This document shows positions 202 to 18,141 of a DNA stretch of 24,000 nucleotides, piece by piece. A model generated the notes under the pieces. The model saw only the letters and a program-made list of their open reading frames with translations, was not told the origin of the DNA and made no database searches. Location: positions 15,313-39,312 of the forward strand of contig CAUTMX010000003.1 in assembly GCA_963539685.1 (NCBI GenBank), read 5' to 3'. Both the position numbers and the translations under genes were made by a program. Position 1 is the first letter of the stretch. Each line of letters starts with the position of its first letter. The DNA is from an uncultured Atopobiaceae bacterium. Its GTDB lineage: Bacteria > Actinomycetota > Coriobacteriia > Coriobacteriales > Atopobiaceae.

Positions 202-206
202 ATCAA

Positions 207-1871
207 CTAATCGAATCCTGGAAGTCTTTCTGTATACTCGCTTGATGATTTAACATTCCAAGAACGGCCGAATAACTTTTGAGAGCTCGACAATTTCAAT
301 ACAACCGATTCATCAATAATGGACTTTGTGTCATTTTGATAATGTTGCACATTATCAAAAGATATAAAGACTTGTTTTGTTTGCTCAGAATATAGTCTGA
401 TGATTTTAGAGATAGTAGAGTCTTCAATATCGTTGAACATAAATGAGTCATGTGCTATGGCTGGTAAAACAGTAAGATTTAAAAGTGCAACGTCAAAAAG
501 AATTACACTTCGTTGATTTGCTCCCGTTCCACTGTCATGTGGAGTTTCGTATTTATATGATGTGCTGCTATTTATAAATAAGCGTGGTGAGAAATGGTCT
601 AATCCAATAATTTTATTGTTTAACTGAGAGAGTTCGTTATTGAGAGAATCTTGAATGTCTTGAATTATAGACGTATAAAGCGTCTCTTTAGTTTTATTAA
701 GCTCAATCTTAAGATTCTTAGAAGAATGCCATTCTTTCCAAAGGTCAATTTTTCTTTGAAGGCTGTCAATCTCTTTTTCAATTTTTATAATTTCGTCTAT
801 GAAATCAGTTGCGTAAATGGTTTTTATTGGTAAGTTATCCAACTGCTGATATAGAGTCGATAACTCTTCAGTAAGATTTATCGACTCTTTCTGCACTAAG
901 GTCTTTTCATATTGGAAGTCTTCTTCAAGAAGCGTAAACAATTTTTGATGAAAAGATTCAATTTGAATCAATAATTTTAGATTCACGCCAGGGAAAAAAT
1001 TAGCAAACTCCTCAAGTTCATCTGAACTAATAAACGACTCAAGATGATCTGATGAATCAAGAATTCTTTTTCTTTCATTAATGATTTTAAGCTGTAATTT
1101 TGTATTGTTAATTTTATCTTCTAAGAGCTTTTTCTCTTGATAAATTTTGCGATCCGTCGCGTCAGGAATTTTTGATTGATTTGATTCAAGTTGAAAACGC
1201 TTGGACTGTAATTGAATAATTCTTTGTTCATACTGCGCTATCTTCGCACTAGATTGTGGAATCTTTTTAATTTCTTTATGTAAATATTCAAAATAGTTTA
1301 GCTTCTTTTTATTTGTCGCCAATGTATTGTTAACTTCTTCAAGTTTTTTATATCTATCAAATAGCTGAATTAGACTTATTAAATTTTTCTCTTTACTAGA
1401 TGGAAAAGGAGGCTCTAATGGATCTTTAGTTTTTAAGTTGGACTTTTCAGCTATCCTAAAATGTGAGCTAATAGCTGTTCTAAAAACAGCTTCATTCTCA
1501 ATAAACTGATACTTAAGGGCAAGAAAATGAACATACTCAGGATGATCTAGAATCGTTTCGACAGATTGATAAGTATCGCTGTATTTCTTTATCTCATTTG
1601 GTTTGTCCGTAGAACGAGAAAAACGAAATACTTCTTCATTAAATTTAAAAGCAAAAAATATCTCATGATTATCAAGATGCTTTACAGCGTCCGATTTGGC
1701 ATATGAATTTCCGCCATAAACAAAGTCCAATATCAATAATGATGTAGACTTTCCGATAGAATTAGAAGCTCCTTTTTCTCCTAGAATCACGTTAAGTCCT
1801 GAGCGAAATTGAATATGTTTTTCGGCCGTGTTAGCCTGTGGAATAGCGGGAGACCATAATTCTAACAGCAT
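207..1871 (-). CDS. Coiled-coil ABC/SMC-type ATPase, LmuB-like / DUF2326-like (ATPase component of a Lamassu / ABC-three-component-type system)
   Basis: 554-aa ORF. The N-terminus has a Walker A-like GEKGASNSIGKST followed by LLILDFVYGG. About 300 aa of K/E/Q/L/N-rich sequence in the middle is typical of a coiled coil. The C-terminus has an ABC-signature-like DSGTGANQRS and a Walker B-like LPAIAHDSFMF. Its ATG overlaps the stop of the upstream 86-aa gene by 10 nt (ATGCTGTTAG), with GAGG 8 nt upstream. Confidence 0.7.
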   Translation of the reverse strand: MLLELWSPAIPQANTAEKHIQFRSGLNVILGEKGASNSIGKSTSLLILDFVYGGNSYAKSDAVKHLDNHEIFFAFKFNEEVFRFSRSTDKPNEIKKYSDTYQSVETILDHPEYVHFLALKYQFIENEAVFRTAISSHFRIAEKSNLKTKDPLEPPFPSSKEKNLISLIQLFDRYKKLEEVNNTLATNKKKLNYFEYLHKEIKKIPQSSAKIAQYEQRIIQLQSKRFQLESNQSKIPDATDRKIYQEKKLLEDKINNTKLQLKIINERKRILDSSDHLESFISSDELEEFANFFPGVNLKLLIQIESFHQKLFTLLEEDFQYEKTLVQKESINLTEELSTLYQQLDNLPIKTIYATDFIDEIIKIEKEIDSLQRKIDLWKEWHSSKNLKIELNKTKETLYTSIIQDIQDSLNNELSQLNNKIIGLDHFSPRLFINSSTSYKYETPHDSGTGANQRSVILFDVALLNLTVLPAIAHDSFMFNDIEDSTISKIIRLYSEQTKQVFISFDNVQHYQNDTKSIIDESVVLKLSSSQKLFGRSWNVKSSSEYTERLPGFD

Positions 1872-2122
1872 AGTTCAACCTCATTATCCTCGTTTAATCT
1901 GATTTCTCCTAGTGCATACAGTTCGTCCAATGCTTGTAAAAAAGATGCAAGTTCAATTCCTTTTTCTTGATGCAATAAGTGGAAAAGAGTTTTTGGTGAA
2001 CATGAATTTGATCTTAGGGATTGTTTAATCTGATAAATCCACATCATATCACTCTCACTAAACGAATAGATTTTATTGGGGAGTTTCACTTTAATCACCT
2101 TTTGGTATTTCAAATACATCAC
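1862..2122 (-). CDS. Small middle-component protein (LmuC-like / ABC-3C middle component), 75-86 aa
   Basis: This small ORF is wedged between the effector-like gene and the ATPase and overlaps both. The track start is GTG 2122. An alternative GTG at 2089 lies 1 nt after the upstream TAA (2091-2093) and 6 nt after an AAGGTGA Shine-Dalgarno, so it may be the real start. The helical C-terminus FLQALDELYALGEIRL fits what I recall of middle components. The assignment rests mainly on size and position. Confidence 0.5.
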   Translation of the reverse strand: MMYLKYQKVIKVKLPNKIYSFSESDMMWIYQIKQSLRSNSCSPKTLFHLLHQEKGIELASFLQALDELYALGEIRLNEDNEVELCC

Positions 2123-3248
2123 AGTTTTGGATAAAAAAAGAAACTACTATTCGACAAACAGAGTCACTTTGATTACTTATGTTTTTAAAATAATCAACTA
2201 GCTGAATAAAAATTTCTTCTTGGGAGTTACTTTTATCTCTTAGCTGTAAATACTTCAGCCTAACACTGGCTTGAAGTAGCTCATATTTAATATCACCCTT
2301 TTCATCTAATTGTTTAATAATATTGCGTACAAATAAGTACGTCCTTTTTACTAAAGCCTCAATCTGAATTTTGTTTCCGTAATCGAGCGAAGAATCAAAT
2401 TTTTCTGAGGGTTTGACCGGACTTTTAATTTCGTTATTTTCGATATGTAGGCCTATATTGGATATTTGAGTCAACAACTCACTAATTGATTGATCAATGC
2501 TTGTCTCCAAGAGGAGATTTTGCATTTCATTTTGTGAGATATGGCTTTGTTTTAATTTTGTGAAATATTCTGTTTGCTCTGATGAAAGATGCCCTTGTAG
2601 TCTTTCAAAACAGAGCGGACAGACCGCAATTAAGTTTTCATACCGCCCTGCTTTGGTTTTTGTTTTCATTTTTAAATCAATTACTTGGAAATTATTAATA
2701 GTTCTATTTTTATCTATATAAGCTAATAGAGTATTGCAGCCTTTGTTCATACATATGTTATTTGCATCTCTAAGGAGATAAGCTCCAAATTTATCTATGT
2801 AATCATTTGACAATTCTAATAAAGGCAATTGATTGTTTCTGATGTTCCTTTGATTATTCGTAGGAATACCTAACAGAAGGAAAAGCAAGCGAATAATTTT
2901 CTCTGCAAAATTATTCGCTGAAACATCAGTTAAGCCAAGTTGAACTGTGCAATCTTTAAAAAATACCGCTTTTGCAGTCCTATTCATCTGTTCAAAGTGT
3001 CTTTGCATTGAGTTTTTAAGTTCAATATAAGAAATCCTGGAAGATATTTCGCTCACTATACGCTTCGGGAGGCTCCTGTTAATCCAATTTTTTAGAGTGT
3101 AGTCAGGATAGTTGACTATTAAGTCAGTTTCATTGTTGGAACAAGTAGTTATCTGAGTAATAAGTGTACGTAGATAAGCAACCCTTGATCTATCGTCACT
3201 AAAATATTTATACATGAATTCAAAGAAGCTTTTCCACGACTGATTCAT
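2091..3248 (-). CDS. Effector-like first gene of the three-gene operon (LmuA position). It has a central 4-Cys HNH-like/zinc-ribbon motif and no catalytic domain I can recognise.
   Basis: 385-aa ORF with AAGGAG 9 nt upstream of ATG 3248. The central motif is C-MNKG-C, then about 38 aa, then ENLIAVCPLCFERLQGH. The rest is predicted helical, and the C-terminus ends CRIVVSFFIQNCDVFEIPKGD. The stop overlaps the next gene. Confidence 0.55.
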   Translation of the reverse strand: MNQSWKSFFEFMYKYFSDDRSRVAYLRTLITQITTCSNNETDLIVNYPDYTLKNWINRSLPKRIVSEISSRISYIELKNSMQRHFEQMNRTAKAVFFKDCTVQLGLTDVSANNFAEKIIRLLFLLLGIPTNNQRNIRNNQLPLLELSNDYIDKFGAYLLRDANNICMNKGCNTLLAYIDKNRTINNFQVIDLKMKTKTKAGRYENLIAVCPLCFERLQGHLSSEQTEYFTKLKQSHISQNEMQNLLLETSIDQSISELLTQISNIGLHIENNEIKSPVKPSEKFDSSLDYGNKIQIEALVKRTYLFVRNIIKQLDEKGDIKYELLQASVRLKYLQLRDKSNSQEEIFIQLVDYFKNISNQSDSVCRIVVSFFIQNCDVFEIPKGD

Positions 3249-3487
3249 TTTCTCTAACTCTCCTTAAAAAGTGAACCAAATGAATCTACTTGAATCTTTC
3301 TATTTGAATGAGTCTTTTATTCTATAAGCGCTTTCAAAACAGATTCTTAAACATGTTCATCAGCTTTCTTAAAAGGAGGCCATATGTAATAGGATAATAA
3401 AAAATGATAAAAGATTTAAGTATCTTTTATCTGATTTCGGTAAATGGTGCATTTCTAGAGTGCTTCATTCGTAGTCAAAATCTCGTT

Positions 3488-3578
3488 AGGAAGACCATCT
3501 GATTTAGCGCGGAGTTAATAACTCCGCGCTATGAGTAGTCTTCCTTATAGCTCAGTGGTCTTCCTCCTTTTGGAGGAA
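3488..3578 (+). promoter_or_regulatory. Structured 5' leader of the regulator gene: nested long hairpin plus a Shine-Dalgarno-sequestering hairpin
   Basis: AGGAAGAC (3488-3495) pairs with GTCTTCCT (3538-3545). These arms enclose a perfect GC-rich 11-bp stem, AGCGCGGAGTT / AACTCCGCGCT (3506-3516 / 3520-3530). A second GTCTTCCT copy lies at 3558-3565. TTCCTCC (3561-3567) pairs with the SD GGAGGAA (3572-3578) across a TTTT loop, 2 nt before ATG 3581. Confidence 0.5.
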
Positions 3579-3580
3579 AA

Positions 3581-4156
3581 ATGAAAAGGGATTACTCAGT
3601 ACTAATTTCAAGTGAAGACAATAATGCTAGTAGCTTTCCAAAGCAGAAAAAGTTAACCATCAGTAAGAAGGAAATGCAGCAATATGCCAATCGACATAAT
3701 TGCGGCAAAAGCAAACGTGAACTAACTTTGTGTCTATCTATTTTACAGAATGCGCTAAATAGTATTTCAAAAGACGAGCTAAATCAATCCAAGTCCTATT
3801 TTCGTCAGGACAGGAAATACTCTTCTATTTGCTCAATTTCAGAAGAGAGTCCTAACCAAAATGAGGCGTTATTTTACAAAGTTATTATACCTTCTGCCGA
3901 AGATGAGGTGATTCAACAAGAAAATGAAAAGCAGATAAAAACTTTAGCTCAGAAAATCACAACATCAGCACAAGAATTTCTGACTAAAAAAGAGATAGAA
4001 GTGTTTAGACTGCACTTCATCGAACATATCTCTGCAAGTTCGATTGCTGATAAAACCAACAGATCTAGGCCGGCTATTACAAAATTAATAAAATCCATCC
4101 AAAGGAAAATGAAAAAAAGATTTGAAGATGCCTGGGAAAAGATCATCGTGGAATAA
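3581..4156 (+). CDS. Small DNA-binding regulator with a sigma-70 region-4-like helix-turn-helix at the C-terminus
   Basis: 191-aa ORF with a strong GGAGG SD. The C-terminal LTKKEIEVFRLHFIEHISASSIADKTNRSRPAITKLIKSIQRKMKKRF follows the sigma70_r4 / LuxR-type HTH pattern (L-x4-r-x-vf-x-L ... s-x-x-eIA ... v-x-x-x-l-x-r-x-x-x-k). I see no obvious region 2 in the N-terminal half. Confidence 0.6.
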   Translation: MKRDYSVLISSEDNNASSFPKQKKLTISKKEMQQYANRHNCGKSKRELTLCLSILQNALNSISKDELNQSKSYFRQDRKYSSICSISEESPNQNEALFYKVIIPSAEDEVIQQENEKQIKTLAQKITTSAQEFLTKKEIEVFRLHFIEHISASSIADKTNRSRPAITKLIKSIQRKMKKRFEDAWEKIIVE

Positions 4157-4203
4157 AAGATACATCTTAATTAGCCCTCATAAAGATAGTTAGTTAGTTG
4201 GAA

Positions 4204-4839
4204 CTATCCCTTGCCCATTGAGATGATGAACAAGGGATAGTCCCCATGTTCTTGATTGATTATTTTTTCAACTTCTTGATTTGTAGTAATGCGCCCGATT
4301 CCATTATTCCAGGTGACATGCCAGTCACAGTAAAGGACTGATTTTTCAGGTTCTTGCGGAGGTGTATATATCCCACCAATCATTTCTCCCTCGCAAATGG
4401 GTGATGGCATTGAATAGAACCACACATTATCTGAATATTCATCAGTAAAAGTTACACATGCAATTTGAGTCTCAGGATTAGGGGTGTCACATTGGACCCA
4501 TTTAATACTTCGGGGGTTCAAGCTCCCAGTAAAAAGAATATATATAATCAATGCAGACATAGGTATTATCGCAATGGTTTGTAAAACGGTGTGCACAAGT
4601 TTTCTACTATAGTTTAAAGACTCAAAAAAGCTGCGAGATGACACGATTAAAAAAATGACTATAGCCGCTAAAATAAAGCATACCATCCAGTGTCTAAAAA
4701 ACAATACTCCTAAAAAACACACTGGAGTAGGATATGTTATGAACGGAATGAATTCATTTGCATAGAACACGAGAAAGAGAGCTGCTAAATAAATGGCCGC
4801 TCTTAGTAAATGAACAAGGCGATTAGTCTTTGAAAGCAT
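4204..4839 (-). CDS. Integral membrane protein (about 4 TM helices plus a ~100-aa C-terminal soluble domain), paralogue A
   Basis: 211-aa ORF with four long hydrophobic stretches in residues 10-110, then a W/C/P-rich soluble tail. It shares length, topology and the motif Y-x-TPV-x-FLG-x-L (ITYPTPVCFLGVLF) with the 212-aa ORF at 7893-8531. Confidence 0.7.
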   Translation of the reverse strand: MLSKTNRLVHLLRAAIYLAALFLVFYANEFIPFITYPTPVCFLGVLFFRHWMVCFILAAIVIFLIVSSRSFFESLNYSRKLVHTVLQTIAIIPMSALIIYILFTGSLNPRSIKWVQCDTPNPETQIACVTFTDEYSDNVWFYSMPSPICEGEMIGGIYTPPQEPEKSVLYCDWHVTWNNGIGRITTNQEVEKIINQEHGDYPLFIISMGKG

Positions 4840-5134
4840 CTCATTACCTCATTCTGCAAGTTTGAGAAATAACATCAATGCTATCTCTACACATCATTAT
4901 AAATAGTTAATTGAAAATAGTCCATCAGTCATCGCTTAGCATAAATCGATAAGTTTATATAAGTTTTTAGGTTAATTCCCTTCCTTTTTCTGTCCTTAGT
5001 TTAGAGACGGATTTGAATTATCAGATTTGACTCAATAAATATGTGATTTGTGTAAGGAGGCAAAAGATGAATCATTAGAGGCTGTGGGATATCGTTCTGG
5101 ATTTTGTAATGAGACGCATAAACAAGGAGTAGAT

Positions 5135-5506
5135 ATGATTGAAAGTGTGAGTAGCAACATTAATCCATTTAGCGTGAATTTTATTAGTACGGAGACACTG
5201 TCTGAATTTAGTACTTCTTATTTTCGAGTAGAGCTCAGATTGGGCATTTACGGAGGTAACAGGTGGTGTTGGGTTAGAGTAACTGTTCGTCGGGGTAGTA
5301 ACATGGAGCCTGGAAGCACTGCTTCAGTATGGACGCCTAAGCGATCTGCGTATGGAGCAAATCATTTGTCTGGAGGAGGCAATTGGTCTCCTGGATCAGT
5401 TTATTGTACAGATGCAATCTCTCTAGGTCCAACGGGAAGAGTTGGTGTTACATATTCAGGTGGCGAGCCTGGAAATGTTCAAAAGAAATCCATTACGGTT
5501 TATTAA
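5135..5506 (+). CDS. Small G/S/W-rich protein of unknown function (123 aa), co-transcribed with the large PG-binding protein
   Basis: ATG 5135 is preceded by AAGGAG (5125-5130). The track's TTG 5048 start has no SD of its own, so it is less likely. The sequence is MIESVSSNINPF...GIYGGNRWCWVRVTVRRGSN...SGGGNWSPGSVYCTD...ITVY. I recognise no signal peptide and no family. Confidence 0.6.
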   Translation: MIESVSSNINPFSVNFISTETLSEFSTSYFRVELRLGIYGGNRWCWVRVTVRRGSNMEPGSTASVWTPKRSAYGANHLSGGGNWSPGSVYCTDAISLGPTGRVGVTYSGGEPGNVQKKSITVY

Positions 5507-5518
5507 TTCTTTAGTAGT

Positions 5519-5544
5519 GACCTCCCCATCAATATGGGGAGGTC
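5519..5544 (+). promoter_or_regulatory. Intercistronic 10-bp GC-rich hairpin between the 123-aa gene and the large gene
   Basis: GACCTCCCCA (5519-5528) pairs perfectly with TGGGGAGGTC (5535-5544) across the loop TCAATA. No T-tract follows, so it is not a canonical terminator. It buries the track ATG at 5534. Confidence 0.5.
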
Positions 5545-5560
5545 GATTGGAGTATCTTCA

Positions 5561-7906
5561 ATGGATGAAATGGTTTTAGCAACTCAAAAGTGGTTGAATA
5601 GAACTTACGTTAACGATAATCGATTTAACCAGGTAGAGGAATCTGGTCATACTGGATGGAACACCATCTTTGGTTTGATTAGGGCACTTCAAATTGAGCT
5701 TGGAATTCAGTTTACTGCTGATAATTTTGGAGAAGGCACAAAAGCAAAGTTTTCTGAGATGTTTCCCAACGGAATAAGTCGTCAAACTTTGGGGAAAAAG
5801 CCAACATCAAATATTTATGCAATTATACAAGGAGCTCTTTGGTGTAAAGGATATGCGGCACATTATGGATCAATTACAAATGTAATTGATGGTGGGACCG
5901 TAGAGTCAATTCTAAAGTTAAAGAATGATATGGGTCTTATTGATTATCAAAACAATTTTGTGGTGGATATCGAGATGATGGGCGCACTCCTTTCAATGAA
6001 GCAATTTAGACTTCTTGCAATGTATGGAGGAAAAACGTCAATACGTGAAATTCAGCAAGAAATTAATCGTCGTTATCGTGAATATACTGGAATTATTCCT
6101 ACTGATGGTATTTATGGTCGCGAAATGAATGAGGCTATGATTCAAGTTTTGCAAGCAATAGAAGGATTTACGCCAGAAGAGGCTACAGGATATTTTGGAA
6201 ATGGAACACGTGCCAGATTAAAAACAATTGATTCAGGCTCTTCAGATTGGGTTTGGCTGGCTAGTTCTGCTCTAGTGTGTAATGGAATTAGAAAAAATAT
6301 CACGCGTTCTTGGTCGTTTGAGTTGAGTGAAGATGTACGAAAATTCCAAGAGAGCTATGCCCTTCCAGTTACTTCTGTTATTGATAAAACAACATGGATG
6401 AGCTTACTTACCTCAAAGGGAGATCCTGATAGAAAATGTGTTGCATGTGATACACGATTTGAAATTACAGATGATTTGGCTTCTTGTTTAAAGGAAGATG
6501 GCTATCGGATTGTAGGAAGATATCTTTGTGAGCCAGATCAAGAAATGACGGCAGAGAATGATTTATTTAAAGCACTTCGAACTGGAGAGCTTGATCGAAT
6601 TGTTAGCTATGGCTTAGAGTACTTTCCTATTTTTCAAATGTATTCAACTAAATTGAATCATTTTTCTTACAGCGAAGGAAAAAACCATGCACTTGAAGCA
6701 GTTAAACATGCAAAACGCTTAGGAGTGCCCAAAACAGTAATATATTTCACAGTAGATTATGATGCAACTGATCCTGAGATAGACAGTAATATCATTCCAT
6801 ATTTCAAGGCATTAAAGGAGAATATACGAGACGGATATTTAGTGGGAATTTACGCTTCTAGAAATATTTGTTCTAGGATTATCCATCATGGACTTGCAGA
6901 AGCAGCGTTTGTATCTGATATGAGTACAGGATATTCAGGAAACCTAGGTTTCTCAATTCCAGACCGATGGGTATTCGATCAATTCACAGAAATTACTGGA
7001 TATAGAGGAAGATGGGATCTTGATAGAGTTGCCTATTCAGGAAAATTTCCAGCTTGTTCGCTAGTAGTTCATAATAGACAAAGTAAGTTTCAGCATGAAG
7101 ATATTATTAATGCTATATCTCAAATTGAGATGATAGCTATAAGAAAGTTAAAGGATTCAATTACAAATCAGCAGCGGTCTAAATTTATCCTTGAGTACTT
7201 GAGAAAACCAAAATATTGGGAAGATGAGAATACTGCTTTGATGTGGCAAGTATATACACCAGAGTCATACGATTCATCTGAAGCAATCTTGAAAGAAGAA
7301 GTGAATAAAATATGCAAATCAATTATTCCGAATCCCGAACAGTTTAAAACTACATATGACTTAGAGCATTTTGCTGCTACAGCTTTAGGGAATATCTGCC
7401 ATTTCGATTCAACATCTTATAATTATTTTATGTTTGCGGATTTAGGTGGTTGGATTTTAGACTTACTTCAGATTTGGGGAGATAGTCAAAGAGAGGGAAT
7501 TCAAAAACAATATTTACCAAATTGGTTATCTGTTTGTCTTGGAAGTAGAGTTATAAAGTCAGGGTTTGGCTATAAAGACTTAATGAGTGACGTAGATGGG
7601 TATCTAGCTGCAGTGATGCTTCATGATGAAGACACTCTTCTTTCAGAGGTTCTTCGATATATATTCTCATTAACACCACTTAACCGCAGATCTCTTTTTT
7701 GCTTAAAGCGATTTAAAGGTGAACGCAAGTGTGTTGAGAGTGTGTTTGATAGTTTGGTTAATGGGCTACCAAGAAAAGAGATCCCATTTTTTGATGCGGT
7801 ACTCTTACGCGCCTCAGCTTCCGATCGACTTCCTGATGAATCTGAATCTAAATATCTCAGTAATGTATTATTTCATGCATTAACTCATGATTTCATAGAC
7901 GGATAA
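5561..7906 (+). CDS. Large leaderless cell-wall-targeting protein: N-terminal peptidoglycan-binding-like repeats, a DUF1906 (Rv2525c-like glycoside-hydrolase-like TIM barrel) domain and a ~280-aa unknown C-terminal domain
   Basis: It is 781 aa from ATG 5561 (GGAG 8 nt upstream) or 790 aa from ATG 5534 inside the hairpin. Repeats such as VLATQKWLNRTY...GHTGWNTIFGLIRALQIELGI..DNFGEGTKAKF and IREIQQEINRRY...TDGIYGREMNEAMIQVLQAIEG resemble PG_binding_1 modules. The central GYRIVGRYL...LRTGELDRIVSYGLEYFPIFQ...GKNHALEAVKHAKRLGVPKTVIYFTVDYD...GYLVGIYASR matches the DUF1906 pattern as I remember it. There is no N-terminal signal peptide. Confidence 0.7.
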   Translation: MDEMVLATQKWLNRTYVNDNRFNQVEESGHTGWNTIFGLIRALQIELGIQFTADNFGEGTKAKFSEMFPNGISRQTLGKKPTSNIYAIIQGALWCKGYAAHYGSITNVIDGGTVESILKLKNDMGLIDYQNNFVVDIEMMGALLSMKQFRLLAMYGGKTSIREIQQEINRRYREYTGIIPTDGIYGREMNEAMIQVLQAIEGFTPEEATGYFGNGTRARLKTIDSGSSDWVWLASSALVCNGIRKNITRSWSFELSEDVRKFQESYALPVTSVIDKTTWMSLLTSKGDPDRKCVACDTRFEITDDLASCLKEDGYRIVGRYLCEPDQEMTAENDLFKALRTGELDRIVSYGLEYFPIFQMYSTKLNHFSYSEGKNHALEAVKHAKRLGVPKTVIYFTVDYDATDPEIDSNIIPYFKALKENIRDGYLVGIYASRNICSRIIHHGLAEAAFVSDMSTGYSGNLGFSIPDRWVFDQFTEITGYRGRWDLDRVAYSGKFPACSLVVHNRQSKFQHEDIINAISQIEMIAIRKLKDSITNQQRSKFILEYLRKPKYWEDENTALMWQVYTPESYDSSEAILKEEVNKICKSIIPNPEQFKTTYDLEHFAATALGNICHFDSTSYNYFMFADLGGWILDLLQIWGDSQREGIQKQYLPNWLSVCLGSRVIKSGFGYKDLMSDVDGYLAAVMLHDEDTLLSEVLRYIFSLTPLNRRSLFCLKRFKGERKCVESVFDSLVNGLPRKEIPFFDAVLLRASASDRLPDESESKYLSNVLFHALTHDFIDG

Positions 7907-8531
7907 GATTTGTATGTATGGGGAAAGAATTAAATTCCGTTAGAGTTTCAATGGCATCTGAGTTTGTAGTTGTAATGTCATATTGGTTATTCTCATGAAC
8001 TAGTAGCCACTCAATATCTTTAGTTGGTACTGAGTGGCTATATAACCTAATAGTTGCTATATTTTCTCCCAAACCGAATGGAAAACGTAAAACATAAAAA
8101 TGGAGAGTTTCTTCTGCTCCAAAATCAAAATCCTCAAGTAAAACAACTCTGGATAATGAAATTTCTCCAGTATTTACTACAGATTTATAATCACGTTGAC
8201 AGGAGTAAATGCAAGGAATGAATAAAAATAATGCTGCACAAAAAGCAACAGAAATATTATAAATAGCAAAAAGGTAAGTTGCTTTTTTAAAAAAAACAAC
8301 CATAGATTTTATTTTAGAAAACAGCATTAGTGAAGTTATCAGAATGAAAATAGACATAAGAAATAATGCCTGTGGTATTGTCAACAAAGTGCCAAGAAAG
8401 CTCACTGGAGTATTATAATCAAGTGAGAAGAAAGAGAAATTTGAGAAGAAGAAATAAACCACTGCCAGGACGCAAATAACAAAATATACGAAGCAAATTA
8501 CCGTGATAAAAACCCCTTTTGACCTGTCCAT
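7893..8531 (-). CDS. Integral membrane protein (about 4 TM helices plus a C-terminal soluble domain), paralogue B
   Basis: 212-aa ORF with the same architecture as 4204-4839 and the shared motif LDYNTPVSFLGTLL. Its 3' end overlaps the 3' end of the convergent large gene by 14 nt (7893-7906). Confidence 0.7.
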   Translation of the reverse strand: MDRSKGVFITVICFVYFVICVLAVVYFFFSNFSFFSLDYNTPVSFLGTLLTIPQALFLMSIFILITSLMLFSKIKSMVVFFKKATYLFAIYNISVAFCAALFLFIPCIYSCQRDYKSVVNTGEISLSRVVLLEDFDFGAEETLHFYVLRFPFGLGENIATIRLYSHSVPTKDIEWLLVHENNQYDITTTNSDAIETLTEFNSFPIHTNLIRL

Positions 8532-8732
8532 CGCGATATCCTATTCTGTAGGTAGATAAAGACATTTCAGTAGAATTTTGCAAACTATTGTATATAAGTA
8601 AATCAAAAGAGTCTATAGCTAAATACAGGGTCTTCTTCATCAAATTCACTGCCAAAGGTTAATTCTCTAAACATTTCTGTCTTTATTTTAAAGGTTACAG
8701 TAATGAGTAAATTAACATAGAAAGGAGGTGCA

Positions 8733-9127
8733 ATGATTGGAAGATGCATTGTATTTTTAATTGCGGATAAATTTAACCAAGGATTGACTATTTTTATTGC
8801 AAACTACGCTTTATTAACATGCGGTTTGATTTATGTATTAGCTCTAATAGCCTAGTTACCATATATAGCTATACAAATCGTAAGAAATTAACTTTGAAAT
8901 TTATTGAAACGGTGATAACAAAAAAACTCCTTATTGTGGGAGTCGTTATACTTTCGGCGCTTTTTGACCTTCTCGCAAAAATCGGCCCTATTTCTATGGT
9001 TCAAATTACAATGACATTCTATATTGTTGAAGAAAGTATGTCTGCAATAAAAGCTTTAAAGAAGCTTGGCATAAAAACACCTGCTAGATTAGTTAAACTA
9101 ATAAAAGAAAAGCTTAATGACAAATAG
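8733..9127 (+). pseudogene. TcdE / phage_holin_4_1-family holin, apparently split by a frameshift near 8845-8860
   Basis: AAAGGAGG then ATG 8733 opens a 40-codon ORF (MIGRCIVFLIADKFNQGLTIFIANYALLTCGLIYVLALIA*, one TM helix) ending at TAG 8853-8855. A different frame (track ORF 8819-9127) continues with ...YSYTNRKKLTLKFIETVITKKLLIVGVVILSALFDLL...FYIVEESMSAIKALKKLGIKTPARLVKLIKEKL. This matches the family core as I recall it from TcdE (..SRKFNSSFG..G.RK.. TM ..D.. ..ILYESVSILKN....GLPVPKRLKEKI). Together the two pieces give the expected ~130 aa and 3 TM helices. Confidence 0.55.
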
Positions 9128-9131
9128 CGTA

Positions 9132-9206
9132 TGGTGCCCCCAACGGGAATCGAACCCGTATTGCCGCCTTGAAAGGGCGATGTCCTAACCGTTAGACGAT
9201 GGGGAC
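9132..9206 (-). tRNA. tRNA-Glu (anticodon UUC), 75 nt, CCA encoded
   Basis: The reverse complement reads GTCCCCATCGTCTAACGGTTAGGACATCGCCCTTTCAAGGCGGCAATACGGGTTCGATTCCCGTTGGGGGCACCA. The acceptor stem is GTCCCCA/TGGGGGC. The anticodon stem TCGCC/GGCGG carries the loop CTTTCAA, giving anticodon TTC. The T arm is ACGGG-TTCGATT-CCCGT. Confidence 0.9.
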
Positions 9207-15674: not shown

Positions 15675-16619
15675 CTAGCTGACGACAACCTCGCCAAAGC
15701 CCAGGTTGCGGGCCTGCGACTCAATTGCTTGCATGCGCTCGTCGCTTGGAGAAGGGGAGTTCTCCATCGGTCCGCGCACGCCAAAGCGCCTGAACTTCAT
15801 GAGGCGAATGCGCGTCTGACCAACCTTCTCGCCAAGTGTTAAGGCAATGCCGTCAACTGCGGCTTCGGCGTCGTTCCAGCCTTCGGTCACGATAACGCGA
15901 ACCTCTTCCAGCTTGTTTTGCTCGGCCAAAAACGCAAGATTTTTGCGGACCGTGACGCCATTCTCGCCGGTCAGATGCTCAAACCACTGATCGTCCCAGG
16001 CTTTAACGTCAAGCATGACGCCGCTCGAGAGGGCCAGCAGATCGCGGTACTCGGTGAAGTCGATGGTGCCATTTGAGTCGATGAGGCAGCTCAGACCGGC
16101 CGCGTTGCAGTAGGTGAAGAGCTCGTAGAGGAAGTCGGGGCGGAGCATGCATTCGCCGCCTGACGTGGTGATTCCGCGGATGAACGGCATGTTGGAAATG
16201 CAGCGGTCGGCCACCTCACGGGCGCTGAGCAGTTCAATCTTTGGCGTGGACTTATGTTGGCAAACCTTGATGCAGTTGTCGCAGTTGATGCAAATGGAGT
16301 TGTTCCACACAACCTTGCCGTCAGATACGGACAGGGCGTGAGCTGGGCATGGTTTGACGCACGCCTGGCAGGAGATGCACTCTACCTGGGTCTCGGGGTT
16401 GTGGCAGTAGGCACAGCGAATGTTGCAGCCTTGGAGGAAGACGGCGGTTCGGCTTCCTGGGCCATCTACCAGCGAGAAGGGAATGATCTTATTGACAGGA
16501 GCAACACACCCGGTAGGATGTGCTGCTCCTGAATTGGTTGCCGCGTCGCTTGCGGTCGCGGGACGCGATGCTTCGGCGCGTGTTACTCCCAAAGTTGTTT
16601 CTGTTGCAGTGAAGGTCAC
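15675..16619 (-). CDS. yjjW: Glycyl-radical-enzyme activating protein (radical SAM), YjjW-type
   Basis: 314-aa ORF with GTG start 16619, 19 nt after the upstream stop. It has the radical-SAM cluster motif CNIRCAYCHNPE plus two ferredoxin-type motifs, CISCQACVKPCP and CINCDNCIKVCQ. It lies immediately downstream of the glycyl-radical enzyme. Confidence 0.85.
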   Translation of the reverse strand: MTFTATETTLGVTRAEASRPATASDAATNSGAAHPTGCVAPVNKIIPFSLVDGPGSRTAVFLQGCNIRCAYCHNPETQVECISCQACVKPCPAHALSVSDGKVVWNNSICINCDNCIKVCQHKSTPKIELLSAREVADRCISNMPFIRGITTSGGECMLRPDFLYELFTYCNAAGLSCLIDSNGTIDFTEYRDLLALSSGVMLDVKAWDDQWFEHLTGENGVTVRKNLAFLAEQNKLEEVRVIVTEGWNDAEAAVDGIALTLGEKVGQTRIRLMKFRRFGVRGPMENSPSPSDERMQAIESQARNLGFGEVVVS

Positions 16620-16638
16620 GATTGCGCAGCTCTTCTCG

Positions 16639-18141
16639 CTAGTCGCTCATGCGAACCTTGCGGTCGGCAAGGTGGTTAGCGGTGAAGTTGCCCAGGCCGT
16701 CGTGAGCGGTGTCCTGAAGAACAACGTCGCCAGACTGGAACTTCTTCATCTCGGAACGCTTAGCCAAAAAGCCGGTAATGCGGACCAGGTCACCCTCGGA
16801 GCTATAGAACGAGAGGTACTTGTCGTCGATGGAGAATGCGGCCTTGACCACGTCAACGACAGCGTCTGGGTTGCGCTCAGCGGTTGGCTCAGCTGGGAAA
16901 ATGTCGGAGACGCCGCTGTTGAAGAAGCGGTGCATGCGTGCGCTGTGGCGAATGTGGTCGTAGAGGTTTGCAGGCTCGTCGCCAACTTTGATGCGGACAC
17001 CAGGGGTAACGCCCTGCTGGTCGGAGAAGCCAGCCTGTGCGTGCAGGGTGAAGCGGCCGCCAAAGACCTCGGAGTAGACGGCGTCAAAGCTGTTGACCTG
17101 GTCGGCAATCTTGACCATGATCTGATCGGCCAGCTCGTTTGCCTCATCATCCTTGCCGTAGGTGCGGCTGCTATCAAGGTGCAGCAGCTCAGCCACGCAC
17201 TCGCTCATGCCGGCAACGCCAAACATGCCGCAGAAGCGCTCGCGAGAAATGAGGCCTTCCTTAGCCAGGAAGCTGGTCTCAAAGAAGTTGGAATCCTCAA
17301 CAATAAAGCGGACGCGCTCGTTCATGAAGTTCAGGACCTCGCCGGTTGCGGTTGGCAGCAGGTTGTTCATGAAGTCGTCAACGTTGGTTGCAAGTTTTGC
17401 AAGGCCAGAGAGAAGTACGCGGCTCAAAGTGTAAGCGCCGCCGCCCATAGGAAGAACGTTGTAGCAGCTTACGACGGTGTACTCGCCAGGGTAGGTCTCT
17501 TTGTGGATGCGGTGGTTAGCAAAAGCAGGGTTGGAGCAGACCATGGTGGTCTTGACTGCCAGGCGCATGAACTCGTCGGATGTAATCTCTGGATCGTACT
17601 TGAGAGTGAAGTTTGGAACGGCGTTCATGAGCTCGCGATCAACCTCAAGCAGCAGTCTACCTGCGCGAGTGTCCTCTGGTCCAATGTTTGCGTGGCAGTA
17701 ACCACTTGCAACGGTGCGGTCGATGTGGTTCAGGAAGCGGCGCAGACGAGGCTTAATCTCTGCGTCGGTCATGCCCTCCAGGAATGGGTCAATAATCTTG
17801 TCCAGCTGACCAACATAGACAGGGCGGCTGGTGACAGAAGGAACGTTGTCGTAGAGAGCGGCAAGGCCCCAGAGTAGGTCATCGAGGGTCTCTGGCTTGT
17901 CAAAGCGCAAAAACTCGGAACCGTTCTGAGCAAATACCTGGTAGTCAGGGCAGATGTAGCGAGGACGGTAAGGAGCGTTGCCCTCACACATGTCGTCAAG
18001 CGCGTGAGCTGCAAAAAGGCGGTCAAACTCAGCGGTGGTCTTGATAGGGTGCTCGGAGTTCTCGGCAGCCTGAGCCAGGTGCAGAACCTTCTGCTTGTAC
18101 GAGAGGTTGTCGGAAGTAATGATGTCCATGAACTCGCTCAT
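16639..18141 (-). CDS. yjjI: YjjI-family (DUF3029) putative glycine-radical enzyme
   Basis: 500-aa ORF with AAGGAG 5 nt upstream of ATG 18141. It is much shorter than PFL-type GREs. The C-terminal SSEGDLVRITGFLAKR matches the glycyl-radical fingerprint R-[VI]-x-G-[FYW]. Its size and its pairing with a YjjW-like activase fit the YjjI family as I recall it. Confidence 0.75.
   Translation of the reverse strand: MSEFMDIITSDNLSYKQKVLHLAQAAENSEHPIKTTAEFDRLFAAHALDDMCEGNAPYRPRYICPDYQVFAQNGSEFLRFDKPETLDDLLWGLAALYDNVPSVTSRPVYVGQLDKIIDPFLEGMTDAEIKPRLRRFLNHIDRTVASGYCHANIGPEDTRAGRLLLEVDRELMNAVPNFTLKYDPEITSDEFMRLAVKTTMVCSNPAFANHRIHKETYPGEYTVVSCYNVLPMGGGAYTLSRVLLSGLAKLATNVDDFMNNLLPTATGEVLNFMNERVRFIVEDSNFFETSFLAKEGLISRERFCGMFGVAGMSECVAELLHLDSSRTYGKDDEANELADQIMVKIADQVNSFDAVYSEVFGGRFTLHAQAGFSDQQGVTPGVRIKVGDEPANLYDHIRHSARMHRFFNSGVSDIFPAEPTAERNPDAVVDVVKAAFSIDDKYLSFYSSEGDLVRITGFLAKRSEMKKFQSGDVVLQDTAHDGLGNFTANHLADRKVRMSD

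Follow-up and report, generated by a model that had tools for sequence, protein, structure and literature searches.

What, other than a nuclease, can a Lamassu sensor switch on? The question is raised by an operon of three minus-strand genes, with a G+C content of 32 per cent, at one end of a 24,000-nucleotide (nt) stretch of DNA from an uncultured Atopobiaceae bacterium (GenBank assembly GCA_963539685.1, contig CAUTMX010000003.1, positions 15,313 to 39,312 of the forward strand), which we call the window. Few SMC-based immune systems are as widespread as Lamassu, whose mechanism has so far been worked out for nuclease effectors alone. The operon appears to represent a large, conserved, prophage-borne subfamily of human-associated Bacillota and Actinomycetota, in which the sensor is kept and the effector is predicted to be nuclease-dead and to carry an added domain. 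On balance, and by analogy with Lamassu, we lean toward a reading in which a short-Lamassu-like DNA sensor would free an effector activated by oligomerization, whose output would be something other than canonical HNH cleavage and would depend on its N-terminal domain. The three genes, in the order of the operon, are:

2091-3248, minus strand: effector gene, LmuA-like, 385 amino acids (aa), encoding an N-terminal domain, a degenerate HNH zinc module and a CTD11 domain (open reading frame [ORF], Pfam, PHROG and AlphaFold2 [AF2])
1862-2089, minus strand: middle-component gene, LmuC-like MC7, 75 aa, GTG start (Pfam, phrog_6259 and the consensus of orthologue starts)
207-1871, minus strand: gene of a DUF2326 ABC/SMC-like ATPase, LmuB-like, 554 aa (Pfam, phrog_5467 and PADLOC matches of relatives)

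Assignment of the operon to a known system type

A first-pass annotation of the window, made from the sequence alone, had reported three coupled minus-strand ORFs of 385, 86 and 554 aa and a 10-nt overlap (ATGCTGTTAG, 1862-1871) between the middle and ATPase genes, all of which are present. The 86 aa are the longest form of the middle ORF (1862-2122, minus strand, in the ORF list). The annotation had given two alternatives for the junction with the effector gene, a 32-nt overlap or a GTG start at 2089, and we favour the second. There, the stop codon TAA (2091-2093) is followed by one base and then by the GTG, which lies behind AAGGTGA. We assign the start of the middle gene to this codon, with a product of 75 aa, because the MC7 profile, phrog_6259 and the starts of orthologues all agree: position 1 of the Pfam profile falls on residue 14 of the 86-aa ORF, and about 70 orthologues open with M[QK][LF]P[NS]K, which here reads V(M)KLPNK.

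CTD11 and MC7 are Pfam's effector C-terminal domain (CTD) and middle-component (MC) families of the ABC three-component (ABC-3C) systems, and we take DUF2326 to be their ATPase family. Chance cannot account for the matches to these three families, as each product scores well above the Pfam gathering cut-off: the effector matches CTD11 (PF20277) with 75.3 bits against a cut-off of 27.7 (E = 9e-21; residues 244-379, covering profile positions 3-138 of 138), the middle protein matches MC7 (PF20292) with 49.5 bits against 27 (E = 4.6e-13), and the ATPase matches DUF2326 (PF10088) with 62.2 bits against 28.7 (E = 5e-17). The effector also corresponds over its full length to phrog_6948 (5e-40), the middle protein in its 75-aa form (residues 1-74) end to end to phrog_6259 (2e-14), and the ATPase over its full length to phrog_5467 (6e-104). 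All three PHROG families are annotated as 'unknown function'. With a full-length PHROG family for each of its three proteins, the cassette as a whole is already on record from phage genomes.

Judged by the ABC-3C classification of Krishnan et al. (2020) as it is encoded in Pfam, and by papers that cite that classification, the operon has the ATPase family, a middle component between the other two genes, the effector CTD and co-localization in unrelated genomes. It lacks a nameable enzymatic or toxic effector domain, the candidates being an HNH remnant without the catalytic His and an N-terminal domain without a match in Pfam, PDB or BFVD. At the level of motifs, the ATPase has the Walker A motif, the Walker B pattern and, at 554 aa, the length of a short-Lamassu ATPase. 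By these family matches, the operon is identified as a three-gene Lamassu/ABC-3C-type system of the CTD11-MC7-DUF2326 subtype, a known system type, and the first-pass proposal of a Lamassu/ABC-3C-like operon in this gene order holds. We write 'Lamassu-type', not proven Lamassu, for a system whose profile membership appears to be transitive through its relatives. The same proposal had called the operon a divergent member; it is less divergent than this implied, as all of its parts are in Pfam and PHROGs and some are in PADLOC. What is new is a widespread variant of the effector. The system type is already known, and so is 'HNH' as a short-Lamassu effector type, which has been listed as such (PMC12663957).

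An HNH-derived module without the catalytic histidines

Three parts can be distinguished in the effector:

2799-3248, minus strand: N-terminal alpha-helical domain (N-domain), residues ~1-150 (seven predicted helices; PADLOC LmuA match)
2583-2786, minus strand: HNH-derived Cys4 zinc module, residues ~155-222, without the catalytic His (profile, Foldseek and alignment)
2112-2519, minus strand: CTD11 domain, residues 244-379 (Pfam PF20277)

The closest distant homologue of the effector is a 256-aa 'HNH endonuclease' of Paraclostridium, which consists of HNH_2 and CTD11 and whose CTD11 is 30 per cent identical to that of the window effector. A profile search recovered >100 canonical HNH_2-CTD11 proteins of ~252 aa. 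They keep the motifs AHIYPLNP and CxxCHxxFD (the helix His is H in 105/105) and can be aligned with the window effector from residue ~155 onward, where the 15 residues of the AHIYPLNP segment are missing from the latter, which reads CPLCF instead of CxxCH (F214) and LQ instead of FD. Compared to the canonical ABC-3C system of HNH_2-CTD11, MC7 and DUF2326 (PF13391+PF20277, PF20292 and PF10088; PADLOC candidate PDC-M68), exemplified by a Bacillus cereus locus (L090), the operon is alike in its three families, in their order and in its overlapping gene ends. However, the canonical effector (~252 aa) has no N-terminal extension and has both motifs intact, whereas the window effector is extended by 135-150 residues at its N-terminus and has neither of the two histidines.

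An exhaustive search with residues 1-235 identified a separate family of long forms (~375-398 aa) that have the whole architecture in common with the window effector at 23-32 per cent identity, and a profile search found about 75 full-length members from metagenomes. The long form to which the window effector belongs (~377-385 aa) begins with a helical domain of ~150 aa, continues with a zinc module of HNH fold and ends with CTD11. C166, C171, C210, C213 and N205 are invariant in a 19-member alignment. The profile of the family matches the HNH domain of Escherichia coli McrA (6GHC; 1.9e-7), with the HH pair of McrA opposite hydrophobic residues. The AF2 model of the window effector (mean predicted local distance difference test [pLDDT] score of 80.5, from an 88-row alignment) has seven N-terminal helices and a long connecting helix, a beta module (residues 176-209) followed by a helix (211-217), and a helical C-terminal domain. 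In a Foldseek search of this model against PDB, only HNH domains were matched, over ~83 columns (McrA with a probability of 0.98-0.99, ScoMcrA and Cap5; 0.9-0.99 overall), and a fold search against BFVD gave the same picture. Residues ~155-222 resemble McrA-type HNH domains (6GHC, 5ZMM) in fold and in the Cys4 zinc site, but, unlike them, have neither the general base nor the metal-ligand His. Counted in the 88-row alignment, which comprises 78 long forms and 10 canonical forms, the key residues are distributed as follows:

General-base His: long forms 0/78 (L 59, V 5, D 4, others 10); canonical forms 10/10
HNH Asn: long forms 78/78; canonical forms 10/10
Helix His: long forms 29/78 (F214 in the window effector); canonical forms 10/10 in the same alignment

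Of the features that define an HNH nuclease, the fold and the zinc site are present, and the general-base His and the helix metal-ligand His are absent. Because the established catalytic residues are lost, the central domain, an HNH-derived zinc module, should not catalyse canonical beta-beta-alpha-Me cleavage. On the evidence of these alignments, the effector is derived from the HNH-nuclease effector canonical for its subfamily, with the catalytic histidines lost and an N-terminal domain gained. The first-pass description of an effector devoid of the usual killing domains needs to be amended in this respect: there is indeed no intact nuclease, but what had been noted only as a 'Cys motif' is a Cys4 module of HNH fold at residues ~155-222. 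Nor is the effector unassignable, as had been claimed: by profile it belongs to a family, that of the CTD11 long forms (phrog_6948), and the claim stands for its biochemical output alone.

The HNH-like module could still be a nuclease that works through a non-canonical site, made up of D191 or of residues supplied in trans after oligomerization, in which case the N-domain would have a regulatory or DNA-binding role. Such a site would agree with the retained fold, Cys4 site and invariant Asn, with the second His that is kept in 29 of the 78 long forms and with the observation that Lamassu nuclease pockets form between subunits. D191 of the window effector does stand at the general-base position in a pairwise alignment, but this position is unconserved across the family (mostly L, with 59, and V, with 5, and D in only 4 members). 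Moreover, the window effector lacks both histidines and the Asp of FD, none of the long forms tried was matched by a Pfam HNH model at E <= 0.001, and the His has been lost in independent long-form lineages as well (TQIFP). We therefore regard a non-canonical nuclease as unlikely.

The N-terminal domain

In the N-domain of the long forms, R27 and N113 are the only near-invariant residues, and D42, D49, T51 and R58 are frequent. The N-domain matches positions 1-144 of the 327-position PADLOC LmuA model PDLC03857, weakly in the window effector itself (1.3e-3) and in 15 of 19 long-form family members overall (best 7e-17). PDLC03857 describes a different protein with only the N-terminal module in common, because the match never reaches beyond this module into the rest of the LmuA model. 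Three family members also match the N-terminus of a PADLOC HamA model.

Further CTD11 long forms, of 417-423 aa (loci L054 and L070) and 472-483 aa (L056 and L073), are encoded beside related ATPases. These effectors, too, are without the HNH histidines (having, for example, TQIFPEG and CDRCS), and their N-terminal extension, a different one, matches the N-terminus of the PADLOC HamA model PDLC00164 (up to 5e-26). A single origin of the N-domains was considered and rejected, as a comparison of the window-type N-domain with the other long-form extensions by hhalign gave no sign of relatedness. The combination of a dead HNH module with a new N-domain looks as if it had been reached by independent lineages.

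The ATPase and the middle component

Over its full length, the window ATPase can be aligned with 44 relatives at 25-33 per cent identity. Three parts of it stand out:

1743-1781, minus strand: Walker A motif GEKGASNSIGKST, residues 31-43 (G40 and K41 invariant among the 44 relatives)
444-548, minus strand: signature-like ETPHDSGTGAN (residues 442-452) and deviant Walker B VLPAIAHDS (468-476) (conserved columns)
948-998, minus strand: coiled-coil apex motif FFPGVN...E..H, residues 292-308 (F293, P294, E305 and H308 invariant)

Within the first of these, ASNSIGKST fits the Walker A pattern [AG]x4GK[ST]. D446, G448, G450 and D475 are likewise invariant in the alignment with the 44 relatives, H474 is nearly so, and K499, Q500 and D506 form further invariant columns. 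The ABC/SMC-type motifs recognized at first pass are real and fall on columns that the family conserves. AIAHDS (hhhhDS) fits the short-Lamassu Walker B pattern hhhhD[Q/S/T/E] (PMC12663957), and the ATPase has no zinc hook, because the protein contains no Cys. The FFPxVN apex motif lies at a break between long predicted helices in a low-confidence model and may be a docking site.

Among the 45 ATPase relatives compared with PADLOC, 41, which are 25-34 per cent identical to the window ATPase, match the LmuB model PDLC03859 (best 1.7e-19) and 36 match PDC-M68B; fewer match other LmuB, AriA and JetC models. Sequence and profile searches of the window ATPase against PDB gave coiled-coil noise and sub-threshold matches to the N-terminal head of Rad50, and those against NCBIfam gave TrlF and Rad50, also below threshold.

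A metagenomic protein of 446 aa (P0213) is a natural fusion of a long-form CTD11 effector and MC7 in one polypeptide. This fusion supports a direct physical partnership between the effector and MC7.

Comparison with known systems

The operon resembles short (type II) Lamassu, as represented by Vibrio cholerae DdmABC (9NY5, 9NYG), in the order of a putative N-terminal output domain and a CTD, in its small middle protein and in its SMC-like ATPase of ~550-600 aa, which lacks a zinc hook and has a Walker B of the form hhhhD[QSTE]. It differs in the families involved: VcLmuA consists of Cap4 and CTD7 and VcLmuC is MC3, whereas the window has CTD11, MC7 and no intact nuclease. In Pfam, MC7 stands in one MC series with the MC3 of VcLmuC. 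In LmuACB, an LmuB dimer and LmuC hold a single monomer of LmuA, gripping its CTD close to the head-distal part of the coiled coils. The complex senses DNA ends, and ATP turnover is slow owing to the deviant Walker B. Once freed, LmuA tetramerizes through its CTD, which activates the N-terminal domain. By analogy with these LmuA CTDs, the role of CTD11 would be docking and oligomerization.

Short-Lamassu 'clade O' has been described as conserved even though the effector domain of LmuA is 'seemingly lost' (PMC12663957). The window operon is like clade O in having intact LmuB- and LmuC-like components and no recognizable active effector domain but, going by the published description of that clade, is unlike it in that the window effector is not truncated and is longer than the canonical form.

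A further likeness is to Hachiman. HamA variants of Hachiman types I-B, I-C and I-D with an acquired N-terminal domain have a catalytically dead DUF1837 nuclease (PMC11914072), and may thus serve as a published precedent for a dead nuclease that has gained an N-domain. Both effectors combine a dead ancestral nuclease with an extra N-domain, and some of the N-domains of CTD11 long forms match HamA N-termini. However, the partner in Hachiman is the helicase HamB, there is no ABC ATPase or middle component, and the added domain in the studied case is a Cap4 nuclease. A dead ancestral nuclease joined to a new N-terminal domain, as reported for Hachiman, may be a general route of effector turnover. 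A nuclease-dead HNH module with an added N-domain was not described in the literature searched, which did not include the primary ABC-3C classification paper or the Lamassu supplement.

Proposed mechanism

The mechanism that we favour starts from what the present analysis grounds, namely the three family identities, the synteny, the loss of HNH catalytic residues across the long forms, and the occurrence of the N-domain both here and more widely. We infer the architecture of the complex, its trigger, activation by release and oligomerization, and the N-domain as the output module. Specifically, a dimer of the coiled-coil ATPase together with MC7 would hold one effector monomer by its CTD11 near the conserved apex, with CTD11 and MC7 docked at FFPxVN. 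The trigger would be the binding of aberrant invader DNA, either ends or replication intermediates. DNA binding, along with ATP turnover that the deviant Walker B (hhhhDS) keeps slow, would free the effector, which would oligomerize through CTD11 and thereby become active. The output would most likely depend on the added ~150-aa N-domain, because HNH persists only as a Cys4 scaffold without the general-base His; the HNH remnant itself would be a zinc scaffold or a DNA-binding module.

Several observations weigh against this reading. We found no experimental test of any DUF2326/CTD11 system in the literature searched. For the N-domain (residues ~1-150), there is no match in Pfam or PDB by sequence, nor in PDB or BFVD by fold; two near-invariant polar residues are weak grounds for an enzyme, and a role as an adaptor or in DNA binding would suit the domain just as well. 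The model of the ATPase, made from a shallow alignment, is of low confidence (pLDDT 41.8). The window ATPase has no PADLOC match at E <= 0.01, including to LmuB, neither it nor its family profile significantly matches the solved LmuB chains, and PADLOC gives no LmuC match for 10 MC7 proteins. The link of the ATPase to Lamassu is transitive through its relatives, because the window ATPase itself matches no LmuB.

We suggest, tentatively and with more doubt than for the mechanism as a whole, that the N-domain may be an uncharacterized killing or blocking module that has replaced nuclease catalysis in at least this CTD11 family and one PADLOC LmuA family, as similar N-terminal modules would have done in HamA. 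If the N-domain is the output module, these Lamassu-type systems, which are abundant in gut and oral bacteria and in prophages, use an output unseen in Lamassu. Should its role be no more than regulatory, the locus would be one more unremarkable case of a family that has already been catalogued.

An effector that does not catalyse anything at all is another explanation, to which we give about as little weight as to a non-canonical nuclease. The protein would bind DNA and thereby obstruct or silence the replication or transcription of the invader, or it would recruit an unlinked host nuclease, and the system would not kill by itself. No convincing catalytic constellation is found in the 385-aa protein, which has a zinc module and, in its model, what may be a helix-turn-helix-like stretch, and the persistence of clade O despite its apparently missing effector domain (PMC12663957) would fit as well. 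Yet every characterized Lamassu effector is an enzyme, and the repeated fusion of N-domains that replace nucleases in LmuA, HamA and CTD11 proteins is more typical of an effector swap.

Distribution and conservation

The favoured mechanism, a defence function with an N-domain-dependent output, concerns a cassette that occurs far beyond the window. The first-pass annotation had named a lack of co-localization elsewhere among the results that would refute it; the co-localization holds. A scan for related ATPases, with one genome per species, yielded 80 loci, 78 of them with a scorable ATPase. In 72 of the 78, which belong to Bacillota and Actinomycetota, a CTD11 effector lies upstream of the ATPase with an MC-sized gene in between. 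The effectors of these 72 loci comprise 35 long forms like that of the window, 27 others without the His motif, 2 canonical forms and 8 fragments, in a census that is skewed to the window's own ATPase clade, since that clade supplied its search patterns. The host of the window itself is an oral Atopobium/Lancefieldella, as judged from loci L008-L012 and from its Fe-ADH, which matches proteins of Atopobium metagenome-assembled genomes exactly. Among the hosts of the cassette are Lachnospiraceae, Oscillospiraceae, Erysipelotrichaceae, Anaerococcus, Gardnerella, Bifidobacterium and Coriobacteriaceae. The cassette is also present in four phage records, those of the Streptococcus phages phiStag1, Javan422 and PhiSdyV1524 and of a Ruminococcus phage. 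A distant locus (L001) retains the gene order at 25 per cent effector identity and is situated in a mobile element beside an Eco29kI restriction-modification (RM) system, and a canonical version in Bacillus adjoins Abi_2.

Copies of the effector that are 94 per cent identical occur in Atopobium metagenomes. Among the Atopobium variants, the ratio of nonsynonymous to synonymous substitution rates (dN/dS) lies at 0.36-0.38 in the effector gene and at 0.21 in the ATPase gene; it is ~1 for the tiny MC gene in some pairs. The genes are evidently maintained, because dN/dS is low for effector and ATPase.

Three side observations concern the ATPase gene. In one Atopobium metagenome contig (L007, 10374-12037), the orthologous gene is split into ORFs of 210 aa and 259 aa, a disrupted copy. 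A copy that is 94 per cent identical lies on a 3.2-kb contig (L011) that was binned into a metagenome-assembled genome of Candidatus Saccharibacteria and is probably mis-binned Atopobium DNA rather than a product of transfer. An XRE/HTH_26 gene of 70-75 aa overlaps the 3' end of the ATPase gene in distant versions of the cassette, those of L001 (8975-9202), L088 (7982-8191) and L089 (6985-7197). The window has no such gene; its ATPase gene directly adjoins a convergent transketolase gene.

The wider gene neighbourhoods bear on whether the operon is a defence system at all. It could instead encode an SMC-like DNA-handling complex that serves the mobile element's own replication, partition or packaging control, an explanation that we consider very unlikely. 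Distant loci do adjoin PolA, VapE and DUF2800 replication genes and a sigma-like regulator, and all the PHROG families concerned are annotated as 'unknown function'. However, the operon is kept in the window though those replication genes are absent, the neighbours of related loci include RM and Abi_2 systems, the canonical sister has an intact HNH toxin-type nuclease and is a PADLOC defence candidate, and relatives match LmuB and LmuA models. That the operon is a decaying, non-functional relic of an HNH-type system is the least probable explanation of all, for although it lies in a probable prophage remnant without an integrase, the ATPase gene is split in one metagenomic copy and dN/dS of the MC gene approaches 1 in some pairs, its three ORFs are intact with coupled ends, the architecture and the His loss are conserved at 20-26 per cent identity across phyla in hundreds of clusters, and dN/dS is <0.4 for the two large genes.

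The surrounding island

The operon is part of an island (202-9131) with a G+C content of 34 per cent, against 52 per cent for the genome, that extends from the end of a transketolase C-terminal subunit gene to a tRNA-Glu gene (9132-9206, minus strand). The flanking gene fragment was also considered as dxs; this was rejected in favour of the transketolase C-terminal subunit. The island looks like a prophage remnant; no integrase was found within it, and no att-type direct repeats were found at its ends. It contains genes of phage lysis type, one for a 790-aa PG-binding/Rv2525c-glycosidase-like protein (5534-7906; phrog_15213 at 1e-279) and one for a holin (8819-9127). The island recurs in several metagenome contigs of Atopobium.

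Between the operon and the next gene lies one further feature:

3249-3580, no strand assigned: putative divergent promoter/leader region with a 25-nt perfect palindrome at 3506-3530 (sequence and RNA folding)

This region folds unusually well as RNA (z = -6.4). The palindrome is GC-rich, has a perfect 11-3-11 layout (AGCGCGGAGTT-ATT-AACTCCGCGCT) and lies inside a longer hairpin. A second hairpin, TTCCTCC-N4-GGAGGAA (3561-3578), overlaps the ribosome-binding site of the gene that is divergent from the effector gene. No Rfam family was found for the intergenic hairpins of 3249-3580.

The divergent gene (3581-4156, plus strand) encodes a 191-aa sigma-70 region-4/YlxM-like HTH protein. A sigma-like gene occupies the same position in L001 and in the Streptococcus phages phiStag1 (L088) and Javan422 (L089), and BLAST finds one there in 16 of 60 scanned loci. 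Its candidacy as a fourth component of the system was rejected, as it recurs in only 16 of 60 loci by BLAST and the examples are barely alignable, and we count it as part of the mobile-element context. Its role may be that of a regulator, or it may just mark a cargo hotspot in one family of mobile elements.

Two other island genes encode membrane proteins of 211 aa (4204-4839, minus strand) and 212 aa (7893-8531, minus strand) without a family match. The two proteins are weakly alike (20 per cent identity, E = 0.007), and the DNA upstream of their genes is similar, as two repeat pairs show (4700-4734/8383-8417 and 4969-5006/8656-8693). Outside the island, the host part of the window has two adjoining genes at 15675-18141 (minus strand), one for a glycyl radical enzyme like YjjI (500 aa, Pfam 3.5e-213) and one for a 314-aa radical-SAM/4Fe-4S activase-like protein.

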